Assembly (NCBI GenBank): GCA_947571655.1
Contig: CANOYR010000003.1
Location: 3,408-67,407, forward strand
DNA from: an uncultured Bacillales bacterium
GTDB taxonomy: Bacteria; Bacillota_I; Bacilli_A; RF39; UBA660
Length of the DNA: 64,000 bases
Reading direction: 5' to 3'
The position numbers and the translations under genes were made by a program. Positions 6,667-53,238 of the stretch are shown here, one piece after another (position 1 is the first letter of the stretch; each line of letters opens with the position of its first letter). Under the pieces are notes generated by a model. That model did not search any database. It was not told the origin of the DNA and saw nothing but the letters and a program-made list of their open reading frames with translations.

Positions 6667-7446
6667 TTAAAAGTTAATTTCTTCAAGATGTGCAATTATA
6701 ATTTGGTAAATCCAATCTGGTCGTTCTAGGTAGGGAAAATGTTCTAATCCTTTTAAAACGATAAGTTCGGAGTTTGGTATTTCTTTTTCCATTTTTTTTG
6801 CATCTTTAAGAGGAGTAGAAGAATCCCTTTCTCCCCAAATTAGTAGTACACGTGCTTTTATTTTTTTTAAATAATAAGAAAGGTCCTCGTTTACGACATT
6901 TTGAAAGGTCATTCTCATATTTTCTGGAAGCGCCTGATAGTCAGGGGATGCAAATTTTTGGAATAACCATTCTTGATAAATTTTTCTTTTCTTTTTTGGA
7001 AGGAGTTTTCCAATTTTTTTGAGAAATTGATACCATCTTTTTCGAAAAAAACTTCGGAATGTCTTTTTTGGTCTGATTCCTGCACTATCCATAAAAATAA
7101 AATTAGAATAGTCATAATGATAGTATCCGCTTAGAAGAATTAAAAGACGACCACCAAAAGAGTGTCCAATAAAAATAGAGTCCTTAAGACCTAGATCAGT
7201 AATCCAAGAATGAATCATGTTGGCATAATCAAAAATGGTCATTGAGTGACGAGGAAATTTTGTTTTTCCAAATCCAGGATAATCTAAGATATAGACTGTA
7301 TAGTTTAAAGATAGGGCAGAAATTAAAGAATCAAAAGTCGCTCTGGTATCTCCCCAGCCAGGAAGAATTACGATACTTTTTTTATGTTCTCCATATTTTT
7401 TATAATATAATGAGATATCATTGTAAGTATAAAACATGATAATCAC
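6667..7446 (-). CDS. Alpha/beta-hydrolase fold protein
   Basis: Nucleophile elbow GHSFGG and an HGW/PGWG N-terminal motif in a 259-aa protein. Confidence 0.7.
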   Translation of the reverse strand: MIIMFYTYNDISLYYKKYGEHKKSIVILPGWGDTRATFDSLISALSLNYTVYILDYPGFGKTKFPRHSMTIFDYANMIHSWITDLGLKDSIFIGHSFGGRLLILLSGYYHYDYSNFIFMDSAGIRPKKTFRSFFRKRWYQFLKKIGKLLPKKKRKIYQEWLFQKFASPDYQALPENMRMTFQNVVNEDLSYYLKKIKARVLLIWGERDSSTPLKDAKKMEKEIPNSELIVLKGLEHFPYLERPDWIYQIIIAHLEEINF

Positions 7447-7552
7447 CTAATATAGTGTATGAAAATGGGAAATGATTGTTTCCAAAAAGGACAAGTTAAA
7501 AAAATTTTTAAAAATAGTATGAAAATTGCAAAAGTGTGATATACTAAAAGTG

Positions 7553-7733
7553 TCTAAGAAATGCGAAACAGTCACATATAAAACCGACTAATATGACGAT
7601 ACGGGAGTCTTGATCAGTAATCTGTGTTGAATGCCTTTCCTTTTGGTAAAGGAATCCTAAGGGTTACGTATGGACACCCACCTGTAAAAATGCAGGTTTT
7701 ATCGCCGACTGAACCGCTTTCTTGGACTTTTTA
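7553..7733 (+). ncRNA. ssrS: Candidate 6S RNA (SsrS-like)
   Basis: An extended -10 (TGATATACT, 7537-7545) is followed by a ~180-nt noncoding segment. Its 5-prime end (AAGAAAGCG..CAGTC, 7557-7575) pairs with its 3-prime end (GACTG..CGCTTTCTT, 7706-7722) around a bulge, and a U-run follows. It lies directly upstream of a tcdA/yrvM-like gene, as B. subtilis 6S-1 does. Confidence 0.4.
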
Positions 7734-7735
7734 TT

Positions 7736-8443
7736 TTGAAAAATAGAAATGGAGTGATCTGGATGCTTGATCGTTTAGAATTATTAATAAGTCCAGAAAA
7801 TCTAGAAAAGATAAAAAAGCTTCGTGTACTGGTCGTTGGACTTGGTGGAGTTGGGGGATATACAGTAGAATCTTTAGTTCGTTCAGGAGTTGAAGAAATA
7901 ATTTTAGTAGATTATGATACTGTAAGTATTAGTAATAAAAATCGACAAATTATCGCAACTGATGAGGTCATAGGAATGAAAAAAGTAGAGGCTTTTAAAA
8001 GACGAATTGAATTGATTTCAAGTACTTGTCATGTGATACCAGTGGATTTGTTTTTAAGTAGGGAAAATATTTCTTTTTTAGATTCTTATTCTATTGATTA
8101 TATCGTAGATGCTTGTGATAGTGTATTTACTAAGCAATCATTAATTACTTACAGTTTGGAACGTAAAATTCCGTTGATTTCTTGTATGGGAACAGGAAAT
8201 CGCCTAGATCCTAGTCAATTAGAAATTACGGATTTAAGGAGTACCTGTTATGATCCTTTGGCTAGAAAAATGAGAAGTTTTATCACTAAGAATAAAATTA
8301 AAGAAAAAGTAACAGTTGTTTGTAGTAGGGAACACCCAATAAAAACAGGGAGTAAAACAATTGGATCTTGTAGTTTTGTTCCAAGTGTGGCAGGGCTATT
8401 AATTACTAGCTACATTATTCGACAAATAATCAAAGAAAATTAG
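7736..8443 (+). CDS. tcdA: tRNA threonylcarbamoyladenosine dehydratase / ThiF-MoeB family E1-like protein
   Basis: Rossmann motif VVGLGGVGG. An alternative start at ATG 7763 follows the RBS aaatggagtg. Confidence 0.7.
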   Translation: MKNRNGVIWMLDRLELLISPENLEKIKKLRVLVVGLGGVGGYTVESLVRSGVEEIILVDYDTVSISNKNRQIIATDEVIGMKKVEAFKRRIELISSTCHVIPVDLFLSRENISFLDSYSIDYIVDACDSVFTKQSLITYSLERKIPLISCMGTGNRLDPSQLEITDLRSTCYDPLARKMRSFITKNKIKEKVTVVCSREHPIKTGSKTIGSCSFVPSVAGLLITSYIIRQIIKEN

Positions 8444-28099: not shown

Positions 28100-28315
28100 G
28101 GAAAGTATATCTGAAAAGCGAAGAAAAAGAGGAGTATGATAAGAGATTCTTTTTTAGAGAACTAGGGGTAGGTGAAACCTAGTAAAGAACCTTATAGGAA
28201 GCTACTTTGGAGTGAAATAATCCGGAGAAATCCGTTATCCAAAATAAGATCTAACAAGGATGGTACCGTGATTATTCGCTCCTGTTTAGGTCTTTTAATT
28301 TATGTAAAAGGAGAA
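28100..28315 (+). promoter_or_regulatory. T-box leader (alanine specifier) preceding the dNMP-kinase-like ORF and alaS
   Basis: AGAGA box at ~28158, a stem-loop CTAGGggtaggtgaaaCCTAG, a GCU-A candidate specifier at ~28204, and an AGTGA element. The T-box core AAGGATGGTACCGTG (28258-28272) carries UGGU, which would pair with the A73 discriminator of tRNA-Ala. A stem and U-run follow. Confidence 0.45.
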
Positions 28316-39401: not shown

Positions 39402-40184
39402 ATGAAGATTTACTTAGACCTAGTTTTTTTTATTAATTTTTTCTTTGACTATCTTCTTTTAATTACTGTAAATAAAATATTAAAAAGAAATGCAAAAAAG
39501 AAAAGAATCTTTTTAGGGGCACTTATAGGTAGTCTTAGTACCTTCTTTTTATTCTTTTCTTTTGATTCTATTGAATTGTTTCTTTTTAAGGTTTTTCTTT
39601 CGGTTCTTATGATTTTAATTTCTTTTTCTCATCATTCATTCAGGGATACTGTTATCAATTTGGCTTATTTATATTTTGTTAGTATTTTGCTTGGAGGCTT
39701 TCTTTACTATTTAAATTTAGAATTTTCATATGATGTTATCCGTAGTATATTTGTGAAGAAAGGTAATTCTAGAAATTTATTATTCCTTTGTCCTACAATC
39801 TTATACATTTATGTTAAGCAGAGTGCTTATCAAAAGAGGAGAAATGCAAATCTTTATTGTATTGAATTAGTTAGTGGAAGGAGGAGATATCAGTATACAG
39901 GTTATCTTGATACAGGAAATAGACTTTATGATCCTTATACGAAGCGTCCTGTTCATTTGTTGTATGATCCTTCCTATCAACCTTCTAAAAAACAAAAAGT
40001 ATTATATGTTCCTTATCATGGGGTTGGAGGAAGTGGAATTTTACCTTGCGTTTTTTTTGATAAGATGATTATTGATCAAAAAAAAGAAGTTTCAAAAGTT
40101 TTAATTGGAATTAGTAAGGAGGCTTTTCATATCGATGGAGTTCATATGATTTTACAAAGTGATGAAATTCTTCAAGATTCCTAG
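39402..40184 (+). CDS. spoIIGA: Sporulation sigma-E factor-processing peptidase SpoIIGA
   Basis: Multi-pass membrane N-terminus and a C-terminal aspartic protease motif GYLDTGNRLYDPYTKRPV, which matches SpoIIGA LIDSGNQLYDP. Confidence 0.8.
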   Translation: MKIYLDLVFFINFFFDYLLLITVNKILKRNAKKKRIFLGALIGSLSTFFLFFSFDSIELFLFKVFLSVLMILISFSHHSFRDTVINLAYLYFVSILLGGFLYYLNLEFSYDVIRSIFVKKGNSRNLLFLCPTILYIYVKQSAYQKRRNANLYCIELVSGRRRYQYTGYLDTGNRLYDPYTKRPVHLLYDPSYQPSKKQKVLYVPYHGVGGSGILPCVFFDKMIIDQKKEVSKVLIGISKEAFHIDGVHMILQSDEILQDS

Positions 40185-40259
40185 TCTTCGACATATTTCT
40201 AGAAAATGAATTTCTATAATAAAATTATCTATCATATATTAAAGAAAGGGAGGATAATC

Positions 40260-40949
40260 ATGATAGGAATATTTTTACTGATTATTTTATTTACACAAAA
40301 ACAGGATGCGTTATTTTATGTTGGAGCAGTTGATCGTTTGCCAGAACCATTAAAAAAAGAGGAAGAGGAATTTTATATTGAACTTTCTTGTGATGGTGAT
40401 GCTTTTGCTAGAGATAAATTAATTGAACATAATTTAAGGTTAGTTGTTTTTCTTGCTAAAAAATATGAAAATACGAGGGTAGATTTAGAAGATTTAGTGA
40501 GTATTGGAACGATTGGTTTAATTAAAGGAATTAAAACATTTAGTAAAGATAAAAATATAAAGTTAGCGACTTATGCTTCTAGATGTATCGATAATGAAAT
40601 CTTAATGTATCTAAGGAAAAATAAAAGAACAAGGACAGAAGTTAGTTTTGATGAATCTTTAAGTTTTGATGCAGATGGAAATGAGCTTCACTTAGAAGAT
40701 ATTTTAGGAACAGAACCAGATATTGTTACTAAGGGAATTGAAAAAGAAACAGAAAGAGATTTAGTAATGCAAGAGATTAATAAATTAGAAGACCGAGATA
40801 AAGAAATTATTATGCTTCGGTATGGATTGATGGGAAAGAAGGAAATGACACAAAAGGATGTTGCTGATCTTTTAGGAATTAGTCAGTCATATATTTCAAG
40901 GATTGAGAAAAAGGTAATTCGAAGACTTCAAAATTTAGTAAAATGTTAA
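40260..40949 (+). CDS. sigE: Pro-sigma-E (RNA polymerase sporulation sigma factor)
   Basis: Hydrophobic pro-sequence, then region 2 (NLRLVVFLAKKYENTRVDLEDLVSIGTIGLIKGIKTF, KLATYASRCIDNEILMYLRK) and a region 4 HTH. RBS aaagggagg precedes ATG 40260. Confidence 0.85.
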   Translation: MIGIFLLIILFTQKQDALFYVGAVDRLPEPLKKEEEEFYIELSCDGDAFARDKLIEHNLRLVVFLAKKYENTRVDLEDLVSIGTIGLIKGIKTFSKDKNIKLATYASRCIDNEILMYLRKNKRTRTEVSFDESLSFDADGNELHLEDILGTEPDIVTKGIEKETERDLVMQEINKLEDRDKEIIMLRYGLMGKKEMTQKDVADLLGISQSYISRIEKKVIRRLQNLVKC

Positions 40950-42154: not shown

Positions 42155-42874
42155 ATGAACGTTACCAATATTGTAGATGTATTGATTGTATTGGGTATTT
42201 TATTATGTGGAATTACAGGAATGAAGCGAGGTGGGATCAAACAGCTTGTAGGCACGATTGGATTTATTTTTGTGTTAATTTTAGCATTTCAACTAAAAAA
42301 TCCGTTGGCAGAATTTTTAAGTCTTCATCTTCCTTTTTTTAAATTTAGTGGTGCTTATCAAGGTGTTACGGCTTTAAATATTTTAATTTATCAACTGATT
42401 GCTTTTTTAGTTGTATTAGCCATATTAGAGGGAATTTTAAAACTTGTTCTTGCAGTTACTGGAATTTTAGAGAAACTTTTAAAGATGACAATTATTTTAG
42501 CACTTCCATCTAAGATTTTAGGATTTATTGTTGGTTTAGTAGAAGGATTTCTTATTGTTTTCATTATCTTATTGGTGTTACATCAACCAATGTTTCATAT
42601 TCAATCGTTTGAAGGTAGTAAGTTGACTGATAAAATTTTAAAATCAACTCCACTTATGTCTAATTTTGCGAATGGAATTGTAACTACAGTGAATGATATT
42701 TATGAGGTAGGAAAAGGTTATACAGAACAGAGTGATTCTAATGAGTTGAATAAACAAACAATTGAGATTATGTTAAAACATAAGGTTATTACAGTAGATT
42801 ATGTGGAGAAATTAGTAGAGCGTGGAAAGATTGATGTTTTAGGAATTGATAATATTATGAATCAGTATCGATAA
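42155..42874 (+). CDS. CvpA-family membrane protein
   Basis: Four TM helices typical of CvpA. It is divergent from rnhC, as Bacillus rnhC is divergent from the zapA-yshB cluster. Confidence 0.65.
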   Translation: MNVTNIVDVLIVLGILLCGITGMKRGGIKQLVGTIGFIFVLILAFQLKNPLAEFLSLHLPFFKFSGAYQGVTALNILIYQLIAFLVVLAILEGILKLVLAVTGILEKLLKMTIILALPSKILGFIVGLVEGFLIVFIILLVLHQPMFHIQSFEGSKLTDKILKSTPLMSNFANGIVTTVNDIYEVGKGYTEQSDSNELNKQTIEIMLKHKVITVDYVEKLVERGKIDVLGIDNIMNQYR

Positions 42875-42886
42875 GGAGGATATGAT

Positions 42887-43201
42887 ATGGAATTAAAAAA
42901 TGAAAATTTTCACGAAGAAATTAAAAATGGAGTTACGTTGGTAGATTTTTATGCAACTTGGTGTGGTCCATGTAAAATGATGCATCCCATCATTGAAAAG
43001 ATAGAAAAGAAGTATCCAAAAGTCAAAGTAATTAAAGTAGATGTTGATTTACATGAAGAGTTATCTAGAGAATATGGAATTATGTCAATTCCTACGTTAT
43101 GTTTCATAAAGAATGGTGAGATTGTAGAAAAAAATATTGGGTTTACTTCAGAGAATCAATTAGAAAAATGGATAGAGAATTATCAATCAGAGGAATTATA
43201 A
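42887..43201 (+). CDS. trxA: Thioredoxin
   Basis: WCGPC active site in a 104-aa protein. Confidence 0.85.
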   Translation: MELKNENFHEEIKNGVTLVDFYATWCGPCKMMHPIIEKIEKKYPKVKVIKVDVDLHEELSREYGIMSIPTLCFIKNGEIVEKNIGFTSENQLEKWIENYQSEEL

Positions 43202-43316
43202 TTCTCTTTTTTTTATATTGAGTTCATTTCTTAAGGATTGACGGAATCTAAAAAATAGGATACAATCTGAATAAATTTTTAAAATCTAAAAATTGTAAAT
43301 GATAGAGGAGAAAGTT

Positions 43317-44000
43317 ATGGAAAATATGCTGAAATCACAAGTAAGAGGAAATTTAGTAGTTATTAGTGGTCCTTCAGGTGCTGGGAAGGGAAGTATTATT
43401 CAAGAAATTTTGAAGGATAATTTAAATGTTTGGTTATCAATTTCTATGACGTCTAGAAAAAGTCGTGATGGGGAAGTCAATGGAAGAGAGTACTATTTTG
43501 TAACAAGAGAGGAATTTGAGGAGGGAATAAAGAATCAAGAACTTTTAGAGTATACAGAATATAGTGGAAATTATTATGGAACTCCTCGTGGGAAAATTAA
43601 TGAGCATCTTCAATCTGGGCAAGATGTTATTTTAGAAATTGAAATCGAAGGTGCCTTAAAAATAAAGGAATTGGTAAAAGGGGCTTTATTTATATTTATT
43701 ATGCCTCCTAATATGAAGGAGCTAAAAAGAAGATTAGAAAATAGAAAGACAGAGACACAAGATAAGGTAATGATGAGATTTAAGCGTGCCTATCAAGAGA
43801 TAAATGAAGTAACAAAGTATAATTATGTTGTTGTAAATGATGAACTTAAAAATGCTGTAAATAAAGTAAAGTCTATTTTGCTTGCTGAGCGTTGTCGAGT
43901 AGATCGAATCGAAGAAATTTACATTGGAAATCAGGAAGAGCTTCTTCATGAAAGTCTTGTGGATAATAAGAATATTGTCAATTTAGAGAATAAAATATAA
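43317..44000 (+). CDS. gmk: Guanylate kinase
   Basis: P-loop ISGPSGAGKGS, then SMTSR...REGEVNGREYYFV and YGTP motifs. RBS agaggag precedes ATG 43317. Confidence 0.75.
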   Translation: MENMLKSQVRGNLVVISGPSGAGKGSIIQEILKDNLNVWLSISMTSRKSRDGEVNGREYYFVTREEFEEGIKNQELLEYTEYSGNYYGTPRGKINEHLQSGQDVILEIEIEGALKIKELVKGALFIFIMPPNMKELKRRLENRKTETQDKVMMRFKRAYQEINEVTKYNYVVVNDELKNAVNKVKSILLAERCRVDRIEEIYIGNQEELLHESLVDNKNIVNLENKI

Positions 44001-44080
44001 AAAAATTAGACATTTTTTTCTTTTTTCTTGTTGTTTTTATAAAAAGGAATTATACTTAAATAGAAAAGGAGTGAAGTAAG

Positions 44081-45325
44081 ATGTATTGTGGTGAGTGTGG
44101 AACTAAGCTAAAGAAAAACGACATTTTTTGTGGAAATTGTGGTACTAAAGTCGAGCAGACAACAGAGGCCAAAGAATCTTCTTCTAATTCCTCGTCTAAG
44201 CAAGTAGTACCAAAAAAGCCAATGTCAAAGTCTAAAAAAATACTATTTGCGATATGTGCAGTTGTAGTGGTTGTATTAGTTTTAGGATATCAGTTTCTTG
44301 ATAAAAAATATGGTCCTAAGGGAGTTGCCGCTGAATATATAGAGGCTCTTATTCATCAAGACGCAAATGCTTTATATGATTATTTACATTTGGAAGGAGA
44401 TACTACTTTTACCAGTAGAGAGCAATTTGAAGAAATTGTTCGAGATTCAGAATCTAATTCATCTATTCAAAATTATAAAATTGGAGAAGTAGTGTATGGA
44501 GATGGGAAACTTAGTGCACGAGTAAAGATTCATTTCACTTTTAAGGATACACAAATGGAAACGACAGAAACAATTGATTTAATTAAGACAAAAAAGAAAA
44601 AATATTTGTTTTTTGACGTTTGGGAATTGAATCAAAATTTTGATTCTGTTTTAGTAAAAGATTATCAGGTAAAAGTTCCAAAAAATTCAGAAGTATCCAT
44701 TAACAAAATTTTGTTAGATAAGAAATATTTTGATAAAAAGGATTCAACTACAGAGTGGGATGTTTATAAAATTCCTCAGATTTTTAAATCAGAAGTAGAC
44801 ATAATATCAACAATCGCTGGTTTTGAGGTAGAGGAAAAAGTGGTGCCATCTAGTTTTGGATATACAGCATCCTTAGAACTTGATTCTTTATCAAAAGAGG
44901 ATAAGGAAAAACTAGAGAAGCAATTAATGACAGATATGACAACCATTTATCAAAATCTAATCGAAGGTAAGACTTGGGATAGTATTTCAGATTCTTATAA
45001 TTTTGAAGGGGCAGATTTAGAGGAATTGGAGGAAACATATCAATCCTTATATGAAGATGTTGTAAATGATGAGTATAGAAAATTGAAAAAATTTGAAATT
45101 ACTTCTATGAAAGTTAATTCTTTAACATCAGATGATGATGGAGAGATTCGAATTGGAGTAAAATTGAGTTACAACTATACAATTGACTATAAAAAATATG
45201 ATGATTCCATTGAGGAGAGAACAGGAAAGAATAGTTCAAATTCAATATTGATTTACCAATTTTCAGGTAATAAGCTTAGATTAATTGATGCGTCTTATCT
45301 AGTATCATATTTCTCAGCCTATTAA
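44081..45325 (+). CDS. Zinc-ribbon membrane protein with large extracytoplasmic domain
   Basis: N-terminal MYCGECGTKLKKNDIFCGNCG zinc ribbon, one TM helix (ILFAICAVVVVVLVLGY), then about 340 aa of extracellular domain. Confidence 0.5.
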   Translation: MYCGECGTKLKKNDIFCGNCGTKVEQTTEAKESSSNSSSKQVVPKKPMSKSKKILFAICAVVVVVLVLGYQFLDKKYGPKGVAAEYIEALIHQDANALYDYLHLEGDTTFTSREQFEEIVRDSESNSSIQNYKIGEVVYGDGKLSARVKIHFTFKDTQMETTETIDLIKTKKKKYLFFDVWELNQNFDSVLVKDYQVKVPKNSEVSINKILLDKKYFDKKDSTTEWDVYKIPQIFKSEVDIISTIAGFEVEEKVVPSSFGYTASLELDSLSKEDKEKLEKQLMTDMTTIYQNLIEGKTWDSISDSYNFEGADLEELEETYQSLYEDVVNDEYRKLKKFEITSMKVNSLTSDDDGEIRIGVKLSYNYTIDYKKYDDSIEERTGKNSSNSILIYQFSGNKLRLIDASYLVSYFSAY

Positions 45326-45351
45326 AATAAAATAAAAAAGGAGTGAAAAAA

Positions 45352-46125
45352 ATGGCAAAATTTTGCACAAAGTGTGGAAAAAAGTTAGAAGAAGGAGAAG
45401 TATGTAATTGTACAAAAAAAACTTCTAAAAAAACGGTAGAAAAAGAGGAGAAAGCAGTTAAGGAGGAAGTAAAAGCAGTAGAATCTTTACCAACTAGTTC
45501 TGCGAATGACTATATCAATAAATATATTGAAGTTGTGAAAGGAATTTTTACACATCCAATAGATACAATGAAAAAGTATGGAACGAGTGAGCATTTTAAT
45601 TTGGGATTAATTATGATTGCTGTGAATTGTTTCATTACAGTATTATTTGTTTATTTAGGATTTAAGGAATTAATTTCAGTAATGACAGAATCTCGTGAAT
45701 TAAGTTCTGTTTTTGGACTTGGATATGGTTTTGGTTATGGAGATATATCTCTTCCAATAGAAGTTTTAATTAAAATCTTTATAATGATGGCTGGAGGATT
45801 TGCTACCACTGCAGCAATGCTTTATGTAATTGCAGGACCTGTACTTAAAACAAAGGCAGATATTAAGCAATTATTCTCATTGGTTGGTGTTTGTTCTGTA
45901 CTTACTACTGTTACAACGATTGTGGCTACTTTATGTATGTATATTTCAGAAAAAATAATGTTCATTGTATTATTGGTATCTGGTGTATTGTATTTGACAC
46001 ACTTATATCATGGATTTCAAAAATCAACAGAAGTGGAAGAAAACAAGATGGGGTATACCTATGTTGTGGCAATTTCAGTTGCAACATTTGTAGTAGTATA
46101 TTTATTACCAAAAATTTTATTCTAA
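45352..46125 (+). CDS. Zinc-ribbon membrane protein (paralogous architecture to upstream gene)
   Basis: N-terminal FCTKCGKKLEEGEVCNC, a K/E-rich linker, then about 5 TM helices. Confidence 0.5.
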   Translation: MAKFCTKCGKKLEEGEVCNCTKKTSKKTVEKEEKAVKEEVKAVESLPTSSANDYINKYIEVVKGIFTHPIDTMKKYGTSEHFNLGLIMIAVNCFITVLFVYLGFKELISVMTESRELSSVFGLGYGFGYGDISLPIEVLIKIFIMMAGGFATTAAMLYVIAGPVLKTKADIKQLFSLVGVCSVLTTVTTIVATLCMYISEKIMFIVLLVSGVLYLTHLYHGFQKSTEVEENKMGYTYVVAISVATFVVVYLLPKILF

Positions 46126-46269
46126 AAGGTGAATAGGAAGCTATGGATGATAGTTTCCTTTTTAATTTAGAGAATAGGTTTTGTTAAAACTTATGAAATA
46201 AAAAAGTTTTCTTGAATTTTTGTTAAAAGTGTTGTAAACTAATCATAGATTCTTAGAAAGAAGAGTAAC

Positions 46270-46460
46270 GAAATTTCTTTTTTTAGAGAGGATATGGTTG
46301 GTGAAAATATCTATTAGAAATGAGTGAAGACACTTTCTATTAAAAGAAACGTAATTCTGCGTTAAAGAAGATAAGCATAAGTAATTATGGAAATAAGGTG
46401 GCACCACGAATTGATATTCGTCCTTTGTAGTGTTACCTTTTTCTTTTTAATCAAGAAAGG
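46270..46460 (+). promoter_or_regulatory. T-box leader of the hisS-aspS operon
   Basis: AGAGA at 46286, GGTGAAA and AGTGAAGACAC elements, and a GACAC specifier region at ~46329-46333. The T-box core AATAAGGTGGCACCACG is at 46391-46407. A terminator stem AAGGTGGCAC/GTGTTACCTT is followed by a U-run. Confidence 0.6.
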
Positions 46461-46469
46461 AAGAAGAAT

Positions 46470-47831
46470 ATGATAATAAAACAAAAAGGATGTCATGATA
46501 TTTATGGATTAGAAGCAAAAAAATGGAATTATGTATCTCAAGTAATTGATGCTGTTTGTGAAAGATATCATTATGATTTTATTCGTACTCCAATTTTTGA
46601 AGCAAGTGAACTATTTCATCGTAGTATTGGGGAAGAAACAGATGTCGTTCGTAAAGAGATGTATGATTTTAAGGATAAGGGAAATCGTGACATTACTCTA
46701 AGACCAGAGGGAACAGCAGGAGTAATCCGAAGCTATATTGAAAATAAAATGTATGGTGATTCTGTACAACCTGTGAAGCTATATTATAATGGAACGATGT
46801 ATCGATATGAGCGTCCACAATCTGGAAGAGATCGGGAACTTACTCAATTTGGAGTTGAAGTTTTAGGAAGTGATGATCCAATGATTGATGCGGAGGTTAT
46901 TTCTCTTGCTGTTAATATTTATAAAATTTTGGGGTTAAAAGGAATTAAAGTAAATATTAATTCTTTGGGAGATCAAGAGTCGAGAGATAATTATCGAAAG
47001 GTCTTGATTGATTACTTTACTCCATATGTGAATGAATTGTGTGAAGATTGTAAGATCCGCTTAGAAAAAAATCCACTTCGTATCTTAGATTGTAAGATAG
47101 ATTGTCAATTAGAAATTATGAAGAATGCTCCTATTATAGTAGATTATTTAAATGAAGAGAGTAAGAAGCGATTTTTGGCTGTTCAAAAGTATTTAGATTT
47201 ATTAGATATTGAATATGAAGTTAATCCATCGATTGTCCGAGGATTAGATTATTATAATCATACGGTATTTGAAATTGAGGCAGATATTGAAGATTTTGGT
47301 AGTCAAAATGTGTTAGGTGGTGGTGGAAGGTATAATCATTTGGTATCGCAACTTGGAGGTCCAGAAACTCCTGGAATTGGGTTTGCGATGGGAATTGGAC
47401 GCCTTATTCTTGCTTTAGAAAAAGAAGAAATTCAATTGCCAATAGAGGAAGGAATTGATGTATTCGTAATGTATGTATCTGATACAGAGAAAGAATATGC
47501 GGTTACTCTAGTTCAAGAACTTCGTATGAATGGATTTAAAGCAGAAACAGAATATATGAATCGAGGTTTAAAAGGACAGTTTAAGCAAGCAGACCGTTTG
47601 AAAAGTAAATTTTTAATTTTGTTAAATGATGAAGAATTAAAGGAAAATCAAATAAAAATAAAAAATAATCAGACTAAGGAAGAGAATTTTATAGAGCTTG
47701 ATTATATTCTATATTACTTAGATGAGCAACTTTCCTCTTTTGAAGAGAGTGATTGTAATTGTGGACATCATCATGAAGAGGGACATCATTGTCATTGCCA
47801 ACATAAAGATGATGGAGAAATTAATTTTTAA
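46470..47831 (+). CDS. hisS: Histidine--tRNA ligase with His/Cys-rich C-terminal tail
   Basis: Class II aaRS motifs and anticodon-binding domain. The additional C-terminal tail reads ...ESDCNCGHHHEEGHHCHCQHKDDGEINF. Confidence 0.9.
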   Translation: MIIKQKGCHDIYGLEAKKWNYVSQVIDAVCERYHYDFIRTPIFEASELFHRSIGEETDVVRKEMYDFKDKGNRDITLRPEGTAGVIRSYIENKMYGDSVQPVKLYYNGTMYRYERPQSGRDRELTQFGVEVLGSDDPMIDAEVISLAVNIYKILGLKGIKVNINSLGDQESRDNYRKVLIDYFTPYVNELCEDCKIRLEKNPLRILDCKIDCQLEIMKNAPIIVDYLNEESKKRFLAVQKYLDLLDIEYEVNPSIVRGLDYYNHTVFEIEADIEDFGSQNVLGGGGRYNHLVSQLGGPETPGIGFAMGIGRLILALEKEEIQLPIEEGIDVFVMYVSDTEKEYAVTLVQELRMNGFKAETEYMNRGLKGQFKQADRLKSKFLILLNDEELKENQIKIKNNQTKEENFIELDYILYYLDEQLSSFEESDCNCGHHHEEGHHCHCQHKDDGEINF

Positions 47832-49650: not shown

Positions 49651-51228
49651 TGTCAATTTTTTTTAAAAATGTCAGTAAAATCGTTTTGAGAAAATGTCAG
49701 TTTGAAGTATAGTCATAGTAAGATCAAAAGATCAATTTTTGATGTGAGAAGATTATACTTCTTTTCTTTGTTAGTCAAGAATCAAGATAAACGACTGAAG
49801 TCGTCCTTGACTAACAACCATGATTTAGACAATAGTACATATTACTGTGAGAAGTAATAGGAGGTAACCCTTTTCTCCAAGGGGGATTTATAGATTTATG
49901 AGTTTTAGAAGAGTTAATATTGGAACTAGATTTCGTTATTTTGATATTTCTTTTTAACGAGGTATTAAAGTCTTTAACGGTATGTAAGTCATACCAAGTA
50001 TCATTAAATAAAATATGTTCAGTACCATCAAGAAATGTATATACTCTAACAGATTTGCTAGTTGGGAGATATACTTTCTCATTATTTTTTAATATTACAT
50101 GATAGACTTTATTGTATTTTAAGTAGGAATTATGAAATACCTTATGCTCACTCCAAACAGCTAATTGTTTGTTATAATCAAAATCATTGTCTAGACATAT
50201 GAAATGATTTTTGGTATTATCAATAGGAAGAGCGAATCTAGCGTTGTATTTGGGGATAAAGACATCGTTTAAGTATTGATTTGCCTCTTCAATTGTATGT
50301 ATGTGTTTCTTTTTGAGCTCTTTATATAAACGATCTTGAAAAGTTCTCCATAGTCTTTCAATCCTGCCTTTAGCACGTGGATTGATAGAAATAATATCTG
50401 TTCCAATATGTTCTAACATATTAGCGAAACGGGTATTTTTTATTTGTTTACCTTGAAGTTCGTCTTCTAAGGTTAACTCCTTTTTAGGAGATTTAAAAAC
50501 GGTTCTATAATCGGTATATAGATATTCAGGAATGCCATAGTTTTGAATTGTTTGTTTCATAATCATTTGATATCCGAAAATAGTTTCTTCTTTATCAAAG
50601 AAACAAGAGGTTACAGTACCAGTGGAATCATCGATTCCACCATGAAGATAGTAATATTTATCATCACCATAGAACCATTGGTGTTTCGATGCATCAACTT
50701 GAATTAATTCTCCAGCATATTCTTTTCTTTCTCTAGGAGGATAAGATTTTTTATGTTTTTTATATTTATGAGGAGATTCAATACCATTAGAAGTAAGAAG
50801 GTTATAAATAAAAGAATCAGAAACTATAATTTTGTGATAATCTTCTAAAATGTCATTAAAATGGTAGAAATTCCAACCTTCATATTCTTTATGATACAGA
50901 TCTATAATTTTATTTTTTAGTTCTTCTGAATATCCACGATGAGTGGATCTATTTCTATTTTTATGAGAAATACTTTTAATGCCATCTTTTAAGTAAGCCT
51001 TTTTCTTTCTATATATTTGTCTTTTAGATAGACCAGTTAATCTTGATACATCTGATATATTAATTTCGTTGGCAAGTAATTTTATTAAAATATTATTAAT
51101 TCTTTCTTCTTTCATATTTAATGTAATCCTTTCATTCATTTTGATTGCTCCCTTCCTAAGGAGCATATTATACCACTTACTGCCATTTTTAAAAAATGAT
51201 ATATACTGACATTATCACAAAATGATTA
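49651..51228 (-). mobile_element. Insertion sequence (~1.58 kb), DDE transposase, ISNCY/IS1202-like
   Basis: A single transposase ORF. The imperfect terminal inverted repeats start TGTCAATTTTTTTTAAAAATGTCAGTA (left) and TGTAATCATTTTGTGATAATGTCAGTA (reverse complement of the right end). An 18-bp direct repeat flanks it. It sits between the aspS terminator and the tRNA promoter. Confidence 0.5.
49811..51139 (-). CDS. DDE (rve integrase-core) transposase
   Basis: N-terminal HTH (ISDVSRLTGLSKRQIYR). DDE core: IQVDASKH...HGGIDDSTG...LYTDYRTVF...E. The start is MNERITL, after the RBS ggaagggag. Confidence 0.7.
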   Translation of the reverse strand: MNERITLNMKEERINNILIKLLANEINISDVSRLTGLSKRQIYRKKKAYLKDGIKSISHKNRNRSTHRGYSEELKNKIIDLYHKEYEGWNFYHFNDILEDYHKIIVSDSFIYNLLTSNGIESPHKYKKHKKSYPPRERKEYAGELIQVDASKHQWFYGDDKYYYLHGGIDDSTGTVTSCFFDKEETIFGYQMIMKQTIQNYGIPEYLYTDYRTVFKSPKKELTLEDELQGKQIKNTRFANMLEHIGTDIISINPRAKGRIERLWRTFQDRLYKELKKKHIHTIEEANQYLNDVFIPKYNARFALPIDNTKNHFICLDNDFDYNKQLAVWSEHKVFHNSYLKYNKVYHVILKNNEKVYLPTSKSVRVYTFLDGTEHILFNDTWYDLHTVKDFNTSLKRNIKITKSSSNINSSKTHKSINPPWRKGLPPITSHSNMYYCLNHGC

Positions 51229-51246
51229 CAATTATTTAAAGTTTTT
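51229..51246. repeat. Right copy of the 18-bp direct repeat flanking the IS
   Basis: ATTATTTAAAGTTTTTCT is identical to 49633-49650. Confidence 0.55.
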
Positions 51247-51325
51247 CTTGCATTTTTATTCATTTTGTAGTAGAATAATGCATACCTTGTATAAGAATCG
51301 GAAAGTAGCAAAGGGGGTTACATCA

Positions 51326-51745
51326 ATGAATTCTTCTTATATATTTGAATACCAAAATGAAAACGAGTTTAAGGTAAAGGAGAGAACTTTACGAAAGTAT
51401 AATATGATTGCATATAAGGAACTTGTCTTTAAAGATTATCCTGCACTAAGAAATGGGAAATTTTTAGGTAATTTAGTCTCTGAAAATAAAGAGGAAAAGA
51501 TTAAAAGTTATGAATTAGAATTGCCAAGTGATGATTCGTTTAAAAAAGTTCATGGAAATGTATATTTGCATTATACAGTTTATGAAATTGGCAAAGTAGT
51601 ATTATTAACAAATATTAGTCCAGATGAAATCTTGGAAGAAGCTCATCGTACTGAGCTTCCTACTTATAAGGGAGTATTGATTTCTAAAAGCAATCCTCAA
51701 AAAGATATTTTTAAGGTGAATTTGTTAAATATGTTGAATAAATAA
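51326..51745 (+). CDS. Hypothetical protein (orphan ORF between IS and tRNA promoter)
   Basis: RBS aaagggggt precedes ATG 51326. The 139-aa product has no recognised motif. Confidence 0.3.
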   Translation: MNSSYIFEYQNENEFKVKERTLRKYNMIAYKELVFKDYPALRNGKFLGNLVSENKEEKIKSYELELPSDDSFKKVHGNVYLHYTVYEIGKVVLLTNISPDEILEEAHRTELPTYKGVLISKSNPQKDIFKVNLLNMLNK

Positions 51746-51765
51746 AAGTAAAATCAAAAAAAATA

Positions 51766-51794
51766 TTGCAACAATTGTAAAAATATGTTACTAT
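51766..51794 (+). promoter_or_regulatory. Sigma-A-type promoter for the tRNA pair
   Basis: TTGCAA, a 17-nt spacer, then TACTAT, about 12 nt before the tRNA 5-prime end. Confidence 0.45.
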
Positions 51795-51806
51795 TAAAAA
51801 GTCGAT

Positions 51807-51883
51807 GGACCCTTAGCTCAGTTGGTTAGAGCATTCGGCTCATAACCGAACGGTCGATGGTTCGAGTCCATCAGGGTCCACCA
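51807..51883 (+). tRNA. tRNA-Met (anticodon CAT; could alternatively be tRNA-Ile2/k2C)
   Basis: 77-nt cloverleaf with 7-bp acceptor GGACCCT/AGGGTCC, D-arm GCTC-AGTTGGTTA-GAGC, anticodon loop CTCATAA, T-arm GGTTCGAGTCC, and encoded CCA. Confidence 0.85.
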
Positions 51884-51891
51884 CAAAATAT

Positions 51892-51976
51892 GCGGGTATG
51901 GCGGAATTGGCAGACGCACTAGACTTAGGATCTAGCGCCGCAAGGCTTGCAGGTTCAACTCCTGTTACCCGCACCA
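51892..51976 (+). tRNA. tRNA-Leu (anticodon TAG), class II with long variable arm
   Basis: GCGGGTATGGCGGAATTGGCAGACGC...anticodon loop CTTAGGA...variable arm...GGTTCAACTCCTGTTACCCGCACCA. Confidence 0.85.
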
Positions 51977-51988
51977 ATCGACATATAG

Positions 51989-52010
51989 CCCTTGATTTTC
52001 AAGGGTTTTT
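51989..52010 (+). terminator. Intrinsic terminator after the tRNA pair
   Basis: CCCTTG-atttt-CAAGGG followed by TTTTT. It overlaps the integrase stop codon. Confidence 0.5.
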
Positions 52011-53238
52011 ATATGCCCAAAATTATCTCTGGTCTTGTTTTGGTCTTGTTACTATTCTTTATTTCATCAATATAACTAATACTATCGAAATAATCTTTAG
52101 GAATCAAATGAATATATGTTTTCATTGTTTCATCAACGCTGGAGTGACGTAATCGCTTTGAAACTACCGTAATTGGCAGTTTTAATGATATTAACCAAGA
52201 GGCAAAAGAATGGCGAAAATCGTGTAATCTAAAGTTTCCTTGAGTAATATTTGTTTTCTTCAAATATTTATTTACAGCATTACAGAGTGAATTCTCAGAT
52301 ATTGGTTCATCTTTACCAAATATAAACCATGTTTCTTTAAAGTTAGGATCTTTCATACAAATTAACTTCCATTGGTGTATTTTCTCATTTAATTGTTTAT
52401 CTAGAGGCATTACATCTTTAGAAGATGGTGTTTTTGGATCTTTTAAATATCTTTTTTGTCCTTTCTTTTTTTTACTCATTGTATGATTTACAGTTAGAGT
52501 AGAATTTTCATAAGAATAATCTATCCATCTAAAGGCCATTAATTCTCCCGGTCTAGGCCCATTTGAGTAAAACAAATCAAAGATAGTATGATATTTATCA
52601 TCTTTTTTCGTTACTTCTAATAGTTTTAAATACTGTTCATAGGAAATTATATTGTATTTTTTTTCTTTTCTTTGATTAGCAATCATCTTTTTAGTGCCAA
52701 ACTTTCCGACTTTTCTAATTGGATTAGTCACAATTAACTCATTACTAACCGCAAATTCATACATCGCATTTACATAAGAATGTATTGCGTTTAAAAAAGA
52801 AAGTGAGTATTTTTTTTCTTTTTTTCCTCGAATGTATGTGGAATCTATTTTTTTGTCTTGCCATTGCTTATATTTGTCGCTAGTGTATGATATTATTTTT
52901 TTTACTCCTTCAGTTGGTAAAAAATGTTGTTCTAATCTGTTTTCAATAATCATTAAGCTATCATCATCTATTTTATGTTTTTTTGATTCTATGTACATCT
53001 TGAAAAGTTCATTATTGTTTATTTTTCTTACACCATTTGTAGATAATTGATTTTTATTATTGCTTAGTTCTTTAATAGCGTTTTCATATCCTTCTTTACC
53101 TAACCACATATTTCCATGATTGTCTAATCTTTTTGTAATCTGTTTTCCATTTACATAGGGTCTAATATAATATCTCGTTTGTCCATTTACTTTTTCTGGA
53201 TATTCATAAATAGGTATTGTTTTCTTTGATTTTGGCAT
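52009..53238 (-). CDS. int: Tyrosine site-specific integrase
   Basis: C-terminal catalytic domain with R...HDFRHSFAS...RLRHSSVDETMKTYIHL (R-H-R-Y). Confidence 0.85.
   Translation of the reverse strand: MPKSKKTIPIYEYPEKVNGQTRYYIRPYVNGKQITKRLDNHGNMWLGKEGYENAIKELSNNKNQLSTNGVRKINNNELFKMYIESKKHKIDDDSLMIIENRLEQHFLPTEGVKKIISYTSDKYKQWQDKKIDSTYIRGKKEKKYSLSFLNAIHSYVNAMYEFAVSNELIVTNPIRKVGKFGTKKMIANQRKEKKYNIISYEQYLKLLEVTKKDDKYHTIFDLFYSNGPRPGELMAFRWIDYSYENSTLTVNHTMSKKKKGQKRYLKDPKTPSSKDVMPLDKQLNEKIHQWKLICMKDPNFKETWFIFGKDEPISENSLCNAVNKYLKKTNITQGNFRLHDFRHSFASWLISLKLPITVVSKRLRHSSVDETMKTYIHLIPKDYFDSISYIDEIKNSNKTKTRPEIILGI

Follow-up and report, generated by a model that had tools for sequence, protein, structure and literature searches.

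TcaA of Staphylococcus aureus combines an intracellular N-terminal zinc ribbon with a single transmembrane (TM) helix and an extracellular part that, in its AlphaFold description, starts with an NTF2-like domain; the protein influences how wall teichoic acid is ligated or retained and how peptidoglycan is cross-linked (PMC10328498). YdjG, encoded in the envelope-stress operon pspA-ydjGHI of Bacillus subtilis, carries two zinc ribbons, an NTF2-like domain related to YpeB, and a TM segment (bioRxiv 10.1101/2020.09.24.301986). YknW of the B. subtilis YknWXYZ system belongs to the Yip1 proteins and modulates the assembly of the complex that it forms with the bitopic YknX and with YknYZ (PMC4887032). 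Here we compare with these systems two adjacent genes, gene 1 and gene 2, in a 64,000-nucleotide stretch of contig CANOYR010000003.1 from an uncultured Bacillales bacterium (GenBank assembly GCA_947571655.1). This whole stretch is called the window below; with a GC content of ~29% it represents low-GC DNA of a gut bacterium from the Bacilli. Gene 1 encodes a protein that is probably distantly related to YvbJ of B. subtilis and to TcaA, and gene 2 encodes a Yip1-family protein with a cysteine module of its own. Very probably the two genes form one functional unit. No description of a fixed pairing of YvbJ/TcaA and Yip1 proteins, or of Yip1 proteins with an invariant zinc module, was found in the searchable literature. 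The pairing thus appears to be undescribed so far, and each of the two proteins is of a known but largely uncharacterized kind.

Linkage of gene 1 and gene 2

The conservation of the pair was assessed in 80 loci, which were obtained from a scan with one genome per species and in which all open reading frames (ORFs) were clustered. The gene 1 cluster is represented in 75 of these loci and the gene 2 cluster in 71; gmk comes next with 13, and all other clusters occur in eight loci or fewer. In 67 of the 75 loci that contain a gene 1 homolog, the next gene on the same strand is a homolog of gene 2, at a distance of -74 to 57 nt (median 17 nt). The partner is nearby or truncated by a contig end in five more loci: it is present as a split ORF in L047 and L055, breaks off with the contig after 71 matching residues in L054, and is found two genes upstream of the gene 1 homolog in L077 and L079. 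In L017 the contig ends 144 nt past gene 1, which leaves the partner undecidable there. The loci range in identity from 62% down to ~24% and belong to metagenome-assembled genomes (MAGs) of Bacilli and to Clostridia. Among the latter are Caproiciproducens galactitolivorans, Anaeromicropila herbilytica, and Lachnospiraceae MAGs, whose flanking genes are entirely unlike those in the window. In the reciprocal check, three gene 2 homologs (37-46% identical in the alignment) each had a gene for a protein of 414-418 aa directly upstream, in three different contexts, and two of the three upstream products matched the zinc ribbon in Pfam. The original prediction had suspected that the two genes are functionally linked and had proposed a search for the same tandem in other genomes; the adjacency in 67 of 75 loci, in different contexts and across identities of 24-100%, bears this out. 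It had also named a competing outcome, namely homology that would make both genes ordinary paralogs without a link. Families were indeed found for the proteins, but the linkage between their genes is strong.

One locus is informative about the partner. In L081 the gene directly downstream of the gene 1 homolog encodes a divergent membrane protein with a double MAKFCTKCG ribbon and without a Yip1 match. This ORF (7330-8367 of that locus, + strand) starts with two copies of the motif MAKFCTKCGKPLE..CxC, and the membrane domain behind them is a different one, not recognized as Yip1. The arrangement suggests that what stays constant in gene 1's partner is the zinc module rather than the Yip1 bundle.

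The spacer upstream of gene 1 is 80 nt long. In five relatives, whose gene 1 proteins are 54-62% identical, a CTTGT...TATACTTAAATAG block and the Shine-Dalgarno sequence are (nearly) invariant, and the rest of the spacer has diverged. The promoter-like element in this block (Table 1) was missed by a consensus promoter scan, as its -35 hexamer has 3/6 matches, and its conservation was revealed by the alignment of the relatives. Between genes 1 and 2, which are 26 nt apart, the scan of 42800-46600 found no terminator-like site; the hairpin downstream of gene 2 is the only such site in that region. It is followed by a T-box leader, at which a separate hisS-aspS transcription unit starts. From these features we infer that genes 1 and 2 constitute a bicistronic operon that has a sigma-70-like promoter and is expressed in vegetative cells. 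Taken with the conserved adjacency, both the operon and the functional linkage of its two genes are well supported and highly probable.

Architecture of the two proteins and comparison with described families

The protein encoded by gene 1 is 100% identical to a public protein (P0001) found on several metagenome contigs. Its N-terminus begins MYCGECGTKLKKNDIFCGNCG and displays the cysteine pattern MYCGECG...FCGNCG (CxxC-x10-CxxC). Residues 2-24 match the Pfam model Zn_Ribbon_1 (PF13240) with 26.0 bits, above the cut-off of 25 bits, and all four cysteines are invariant in the 39 homologs that were used for the residue conservation of gene 1 (41 homologs served for gene 2). In the AlphaFold2 (AF2) model, which like that of gene 2 is confident, a disordered linker (residues 27-42) follows. 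The subsequent basic juxtamembrane motif is consistent with the positive-inside rule if the ribbon is cytoplasmic, and the sole hydrophobic segment of the protein covers residues 48-76 (hydropathy peak 2.74; AF2 helix 50-77). Approximately 338 residues lie past the TM helix, in agreement with the single helix and the extracytoplasmic domain of about 340 residues that had been read from the sequence at the outset. In the model, the ectodomain consists of an NTF2-like, an all-beta, and a second NTF2-like domain, and the C-terminal tail (residues 406-414) is without regular secondary structure. Most invariant positions of the ectodomain hold aromatic residues; D227 is also invariant and, together with the likewise invariant Y216 and Y229, sits in the all-beta domain. 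Because no conserved catalytic-type constellation was seen in the 39-homolog alignment, the ectodomain probably serves for binding or as a scaffold rather than as an enzyme. Apart from the zinc ribbon, the Pfam scan detected no domain in gene 1. The family is large: an exhaustive search with a hidden Markov model (E ≤1e-30) yielded at least 663 clusters (50% identity), and most of the 150 top-ranking matches run end to end. It includes very abundant human-gut Lachnospiraceae proteins, and Pfam holds no model for its ectodomain.

Like TcaA and YvbJ, gene 1 encodes an N-terminal zinc ribbon and one TM helix; the domain next to this helix is NTF2-like in the AF2 model. Against the NCBIfam equivalog model of TcaA (NF053815; 463 model positions, cut-off 550 bits), the gene 1 protein scored 24.9 bits, with residues 3-96 aligned to model positions 4-95, and the best family member (P0355) reached 38.2 bits with its N-terminal part only. 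The Pfam models TcaA_2nd (PF22813) and MecA_N, which describe NTF2-like domains after the TM helix, matched 7 of the 39 family members below threshold (E ≤0.1), the best TcaA_2nd score being 19.6 bits against a cut-off of 26; gene 1 itself had no TcaA_2nd match in the Pfam scan. NTF2_YvbJ (PF25155, cut-off 25 bits) matched a single distant relative, P0208, with 18.6 bits (E 0.0034) at the equivalent C-terminal position. Another hint comes from the JGI annotation of this distant relative as "uncharacterized membrane protein YvbJ". Judged by these profile matches, gene 1 would be a distant member of the YvbJ/TcaA kind of Gram-positive zinc-ribbon envelope proteins. A TcaA ortholog it is not, as scores of 25-38 bits compare with a cut-off of 550. 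The protein also differs from TcaA and YvbJ in its ectodomain, which accommodates three domains (NTF2-like, beta, NTF2-like) in 338 aa, and the neighbors of tcaA in tcaRAB encode a MarR regulator and an MFS pump (PMC10611510) instead of a Yip1 protein. YdjG has the zinc ribbon, the NTF2-like domain, and the TM segment in common with gene 1, but its domain order is different, as are its partners (PspA, a TPM-domain protein, and a Band-7 protein), and none of the corresponding genes is near the pair.

A Foldseek comparison, which the original prediction had recommended for the C-terminal domains, placed gene 1 among solved structures at the level of folds only. The top matches of its model in the PDB are the tandem-NTF2 proteins TcpC (3ub1) and OrfG, and the N-terminal domains of PBP3 and PBP2a were also retrieved, but no PDB match was found at E ≤0.001. 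The intermembrane domains of ARC6/PARC6, the VirB8-/TcpC-like proteins, and the N-terminal domains of PBP2a/PBP3 are 8-12% identical to gene 1, which is a likeness of fold only. Unlike these proteins, gene 1 lacks a transpeptidase domain and a context of conjugation, type IV secretion, or plastid division. A role as VirB8-/TcpC-like conjugation scaffold was rejected in view of the housekeeping flanks and the lack of matches in plasmid and phage collections. The latter result also disposes of a mobile-element origin of the pair, and a defense-system origin was dismissed because neither protein had a PADLOC match (E ≤0.01).

The exact sequence of gene 2 is present in the searched collection, and gene calls in public assemblies give a protein of 257 aa. 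The ORF start used at first, GTG 45343, lies inside the Shine-Dalgarno sequence, and MAKFCTKCGK is the N-terminus of the family; for these reasons, and because of the public calls, ATG 45352 (MAKFC...) is most likely the true start. In the 41 homologs, M1, A2, K3, C5, C8, G9, and C18 are invariant and C20 is conserved in ≥90%. The cysteine spacing is CxxC-x9-CxC with VCNC as second knuckle, and Zn_Ribbon_1 aligns with the first knuckle alone at 16.1 bits (E 0.01), which is below its cut-off. The four conserved cysteines argue for a predicted zinc knuckle pair. A zinc ribbon of the CG.CG type had been proposed for both N-termini; this is correct for gene 1 and, as far as the four cysteines are concerned, for gene 2, but the second knuckle of gene 2 has the form CxC. 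Residues 22-47 form a disordered linker in the AF2 model. The predicted membrane helices comprise residues 79-113, 136-164, 171-198, 200-225, and 230-256, and hydropathy likewise indicates the five TM segments that had been counted before. With the zinc module in the cytoplasm, the basic loops of gene 2 (LKTKAD and the one around K232) would be inside, and the variable Gly/aromatic loop 114-135 and the conserved terminal LPKILF outside.

Gene 2 matches the Yip1 model (PF04893) with 36 bits, above the cut-off of 28.6 bits, over profile positions 1-172 of 173. The match spans residues 63-251 in the numbering from the ATG, equivalent to 66-254 of the scanned 260-aa translation from the GTG, and a precomputed PF04893 match exists for nearly all of the 120 gene 2 homologs listed. 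By this match, gene 2 is a Yip1-family protein, and the earlier impression that no known family is recognizable was valid only by eye. The Pfam scan revealed no protease or channel signature in gene 2, no solved structure resembling the protein was found, and sequence searches of the PDB with the family profiles of both genes returned generic zinc ribbons only. Gene 2 resembles YknW in its full Yip1 profile and five TM segments, and YknX, as a bitopic partner with a large extracytoplasmic domain, is comparable to gene 1. The invariant N-terminal MAKFCTKCGK...CxC module and the disordered linker are located outside the part that matches Pfam Yip1, and may distinguish gene 2 from YknW and the eukaryotic YIPF proteins. 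A difference from YknW is that no ABC transporter or HlyD-type partner is encoded near gene 2.

The two proteins thus have a common architecture, in which a cytoplasmic zinc ribbon and a disordered linker precede the membrane part. When their N-termini were compared by hhalign, the similarity (probability 78%, E 1.8e-5) extended from the zinc ribbon to the first TM segment only. This marginal, N-terminal profile-profile similarity does not justify regarding genes 1 and 2 as paralogs. Elsewhere in the 64-kb window, no ORF has both a membrane segment and a pair of Cys knuckles at its N-terminus. Conservation peaks in the zinc modules of the two proteins (0.77 in gene 1 and 0.86 in gene 2, as majority fraction per region). 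The juxtamembrane motif of gene 1 (0.74) and the extracytoplasmic C-terminal tails (0.65 in gene 1, 0.80 in gene 2) come next, and the linkers are conserved least (0.25-0.28, with 0.28 for the gene 1 linker before the juxtamembrane motif). The motif MAKFCTKCGKxLxxGxxCxC is kept even in Clostridia gene 2 homologs that are otherwise ~23% identical, and its survival at this distance points to a specific, conserved role of the cytoplasmic zinc modules. Natural fusions of gene 1 and gene 2 were sought among the long members of the gene 1 family and none was found; the N-terminal extensions of these proteins are extra zinc ribbons (two to four copies), not Yip1 domains. The distant gene 1 homologs P0321, P0355, P0372, and P0394 have two to four tandem zinc ribbons in place of one, and in P0321 the repetition, almost exact, comprises the complete ribbon-plus-linker unit.

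Table 1. Features of the two-gene locus and its borders, in window coordinates; aa, residue numbers in the respective protein.
Feature	Positions	Strand	Details and basis
Promoter-like element	44028..44056	+	-35 TTGTTG (44028-44033), 17-nt spacer, -10 TATACT (44051-44056); read from the sequence, putative function
Gene 1 Shine-Dalgarno	44065..44071	+	AAAGGAG, 9 nt before ATG 44081; invariant in relatives
Gene 1	44081..45325	+	414-aa bitopic membrane protein, probably distantly of the YvbJ/TcaA kind; ORF; AF2 mean predicted local distance difference test (pLDDT) 85.7
Gene 1 cytoplasmic zinc ribbon	44081..44152	+	aa 1-24 (C3, C6, C17, C20); Pfam and conservation
Gene 1 basic juxtamembrane motif	44210..44242	+	PKKPMSKSKKI, aa 44-54; K53 invariant
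Gene 1 TM helix	44228..44311	+	aa 50-77; AF2 helix, hydropathy
Gene 1 first NTF2-like domain	44315..44629	+	aa 79-183; fold in AF2 model
Gene 1 middle all-beta domain	44651..44842	+	aa 191-254; AF2 strands 191-254, pLDDT >90
Gene 1 second NTF2-like domain	44894..45295	+	aa 272-405; AF2: three helices, then long curved sheet
Gene 1 conserved C-terminal tail	45296..45322	+	YLVSYFSAY, aa 406-414; Y410, F411 nearly invariant
Gene 2 Shine-Dalgarno	45338..45343	+	AAGGAG, 8 nt before ATG 45352; overlaps the GTG start of the ORF list
Gene 2	45352..46125	+	257-aa polytopic membrane protein, N-terminal zinc knuckle pair (predicted) and Yip1 domain; PF04893; AF2 mean pLDDT 81
Gene 2 cytoplasmic zinc knuckle pair (predicted)	45352..45411	+	aa 1-20, MAKFCTKCGKKLEEGEVCNC; conserved Cys
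Gene 2 conserved pre-membrane helix	45502..45579	+	aa 51-76, contains KGIFTxPxDTxKK; AF2 helices 51-67, 69-76; P69, T72 invariant
Gene 2 five-helix membrane bundle	45586..46119	+	aa 79-256, N-in, C-out, ends LPKILF; AF2, hydropathy, loop charges
Intrinsic terminator-like hairpin and T tract	46135..46169	+	ends the two-gene unit; 10-bp stem 46135-46159, then TTTTTAATTT
T-box leader	46249-46428	+	Rfam RF00230, 93.1 bits, just at gathering score; directly upstream of hisS-aspS

Genomic surroundings

In seven loci from Lachnospiraceae and other Clostridia (L076, L077, L078, L079, L083, L090, and L094), the gene directly upstream of the gene 1 homolog encodes a membrane protein with one TM segment and, at its C-terminus, a YARHG domain (PF13308, E 1e-28). 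YARHG has been proposed to be peptidoglycan-binding (PMC3355149). L076, L078, and L083 have a gene for an Amidase_3 protein (N-acetylmuramoyl-L-alanine amidase) adjoining the module. In L090 the module is followed by SH3-domain proteins, and a C-terminal stretch of L081_10 resembles an SH3 domain. In some close relatives, among them locus L008, ~1.7 kb of extra DNA separates the Yip1 gene from hisS. In L008 it contains the ORF L008_10 (~8.1-9.7 kb), which codes for a third, unrelated membrane protein of 156 aa with an N-terminal zinc ribbon (MFCEKCGAKNSKENSFCEKCG...); similar ORFs occur in three other loci, and the window has none.

The gene order around the pair in the window is spoIIGA, sigE, rnhC (on the reverse strand), cvpA, trxA, gmk, gene 1, gene 2, the T-box leader, hisS, and aspS. 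The public MAGs closest to the window are labeled Bacilli or Bacillales, and its relatives include the Candidatus genera Ventrenecus, Scybalousia, and Pelethosoma. With spoIIGA (Peptidase_U4) and sigE at 39402-40949 (+ strand), this reduced-looking gut lineage of the Bacilli keeps at least part of the sporulation program. The hisS product ends in an unusual Cys/His-rich tail, SDCNCGHHHEEGHHCHCQHKDDGEINF (47750-47831, + strand). On one otherwise identical public contig it has 447 aa instead of 453 aa, and thus the length of the tail differs between strains. Further away, the window contains a 6S RNA gene (7548-7732, + strand; 62.7 bits) and a second T-box leader (28112-28286, + strand; 96.6 bits). 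The region 49811-53238 is probably the edge of an integrated element: its reverse strand encodes a transposase-like ORF with a helix-turn-helix (HTH) domain (49811-51166) and a tyrosine recombinase from the phage-integrase family (52009-53238), two tRNA genes lie at 51807-51973, and the GC skew flattens or reverses at ~50-56 kb.

Possible functions of the pair

Our preferred reading, to which we give about an even chance, is that genes 1 and 2 encode a two-subunit, non-enzymatic membrane complex at the interface of membrane and cell wall. The gene 1 product would contribute the zinc ribbon and basic motif on the inside, one TM helix, and a rigid NTF2-like/beta/NTF2-like ectodomain directed toward the cell wall. 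Modeled on YknW and its partner YknX, the five-helix Yip1 bundle of gene 2 may hold or organize this subunit in the membrane. The two zinc modules would then lie side by side on the cytoplasmic face, where they might pair with each other or bind a common partner, and the NTF2-like stalk could bind a partner or polymer at the cell wall. That the two products are in physical contact is slightly favored by our assessment. The field of action may be the homeostasis of the cell wall or of surface polymers, for example the control or positioning of a peptidoglycan hydrolase or of a glycopolymer-attaching activity. This is suggested by the precedent of TcaA and by the YARHG and amidase neighbors in Clostridia, but a cell-wall role is a reasoned guess that in our judgment falls somewhat short of even odds.

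Several observations weigh against this complex or its proposed field of action. The similarity to TcaA and YvbJ remains under every curated cut-off, and its TcaA part is limited to the N-terminal ~100 residues. YvbJ itself, to which COG ascribes an N-terminal Zn ribbon, is of unknown function (PMC13377840). The TM helix of gene 1 is moderately conserved (0.44) and offers no specific support for a helix-helix contact. No cell-wall gene is consistently adjacent to the pair in the Bacilli lineage of the window. L078 is the sole locus among the 75 without a partner, L094 has no adjacent Yip1 gene, and the distant gene 1 homologs in Lachnospira (~24-26% identity) are solitary beside the S10 operon. 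As these Lachnospira relatives stand alone, the partnership characterizes a large subfamily but does not extend to the entire superfamily, unless their partner is encoded elsewhere.

The original prediction had compared the pair with anti-sigma or signal-transduction pairs, or with a surface sensor and its channel partner. In such a system, the ribbon of gene 1 would sequester a sigma or transcription factor, the ectodomain would act as a sensor, and gene 2 would serve as co-sensor, protease, or channel partner. A cytoplasmic zinc module, a single TM helix, and a large ectodomain are formally like many anti-sigma factors, a specific ligand in the cytoplasm is suggested by how strongly both zinc modules are conserved, and spoIIGA-sigE lies 3-4 kb upstream in the window. 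However, no gene for a sigma factor, transcription factor, kinase, or other regulator is conserved with the pair in the 80 loci, and the sigE cluster appears in only eight of them, which are close relatives, at a distance of ~3 kb and with four unrelated genes in between. The ribbon is of the generic PF13240 type; neither N-terminus (MYCGECG..., MAKFCTKCG...) has the ZAS motif HxxxCxxC or any His before the first Cys pair, and searches of Pfam and NCBIfam (E ≤1) gave no anti-sigma, RsgI_N, or HTH match. Distant homologs with two to four tandem zinc ribbons do not fit either, since we know of no anti-sigma factor that is built in this way. Gene 2, for its part, lacks the signatures of a protease or channel, and YknW, the one characterized bacterial protein of its family, is an assembly modulator and not a channel (PMC4887032). 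Together these points make a signaling pair quite unlikely. An accessory function in transport or immunity is unlikely too. Here gene 2 would serve an ABC/HlyD-type exporter or confer immunity to membrane-active peptides, with gene 1 as extracytoplasmic adaptor, much as bacterial Yip1 proteins occur with YknXYZ (PMC4887032) and in clusters for leaderless or circular bacteriocins beside ABC and HlyD genes (PMC10707071). One locus, L083, does encode an ABC ATPase and a large permease directly downstream. Yet across the 80 loci the pair has no conserved association with ABC, HlyD, or bacteriocin genes, and none of these is near it in the window. The setting is one of housekeeping genes (gmk, hisS-aspS), and neither PADLOC matches nor plasmid or phage copies were found.

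Even less probable is a function specific to sporulation or germination, in which the two envelope proteins would act on the forespore or spore cortex. NTF2-like (YpeB-like) membrane proteins and amidases are known in spore biology, spoIIGA-sigE is close by in the window, one locus has the pair beside yabG (Peptidase_U57), veg, spoVG, and yabP, and the Amidase_3 neighbors resemble CwlD-type enzymes, with an additional weak SpoIIP match. On the other hand, the conserved element upstream of gene 1 resembles a vegetative promoter of the sigma-70 type, and the 80 loci show no consistent adjacency to sporulation genes. Several carrier MAGs bear the labels Tenericutes or Mollicutes, which hints at reduced genomes and possibly at an inability to sporulate. 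The least likely explanation, to which we attach hardly any weight, is that two unrelated membrane proteins with a common and promiscuous N-terminal zinc ribbon are neighbors by chance. Membrane proteins of the Bacillota very commonly start with a ribbon of the PF13240 type, the unrelated L008_10 gene adjoins the pair in some relatives, and the homology between the N-termini of genes 1 and 2 is marginal. Chance would nevertheless have to account for adjacency in 67 of 75 loci, with the partner nearby or truncated in five more, across rearranged flanks, two bacterial classes, and identities of 24-62%, at which the loci are not near-clonal.

If the two gene products do form the membrane-cell wall complex considered above, it might act as a hitherto unrecognized trans-membrane relay of the Bacillota whose logic parallels that of the plastid pairs ARC6-PDV2 and PARC6-PDV1. 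The NTF2-like ectodomain of gene 1 would capture a short, conserved tail on the extracytoplasmic side, the candidates being LPKILF of the Yip1 partner and the protein's own YFSxY tail, and both zinc modules would dock together on a common cytoplasmic target. A cytoplasmic state, for example that of the division or elongation machinery, could in this manner be linked to the control, or the positioning, of a hydrolase that acts on the cell wall outside. Such a relay is improbable on the present evidence. If true, it would assign a definite function both to the bacterial Yip1 proteins and to YvbJ/TcaA, a large orphan family.

Both kinds of proteins occur widely and are essentially orphans. For the YvbJ/TcaA type, the recorded phenotypes are limited to those of S. 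aureus TcaA, namely susceptibility to glycopeptides and serum, retention of wall teichoic acid, and cross-linking of peptidoglycan, and the only bacterial Yip1 protein studied is the accessory subunit of one ABC system. As comparative genomics of an uncharacterized module, the present analysis overturns no existing concept. A fixed partnership would, however, provide a concrete and testable handle, with one complex of two subunits and with cultivable carriers in Anaeromicropila and Caproiciproducens. It also suggests that the cytoplasmic zinc ribbons of envelope proteins work in pairs, and, if the link to the cell wall holds, the pair could help to explain the action of TcaA.

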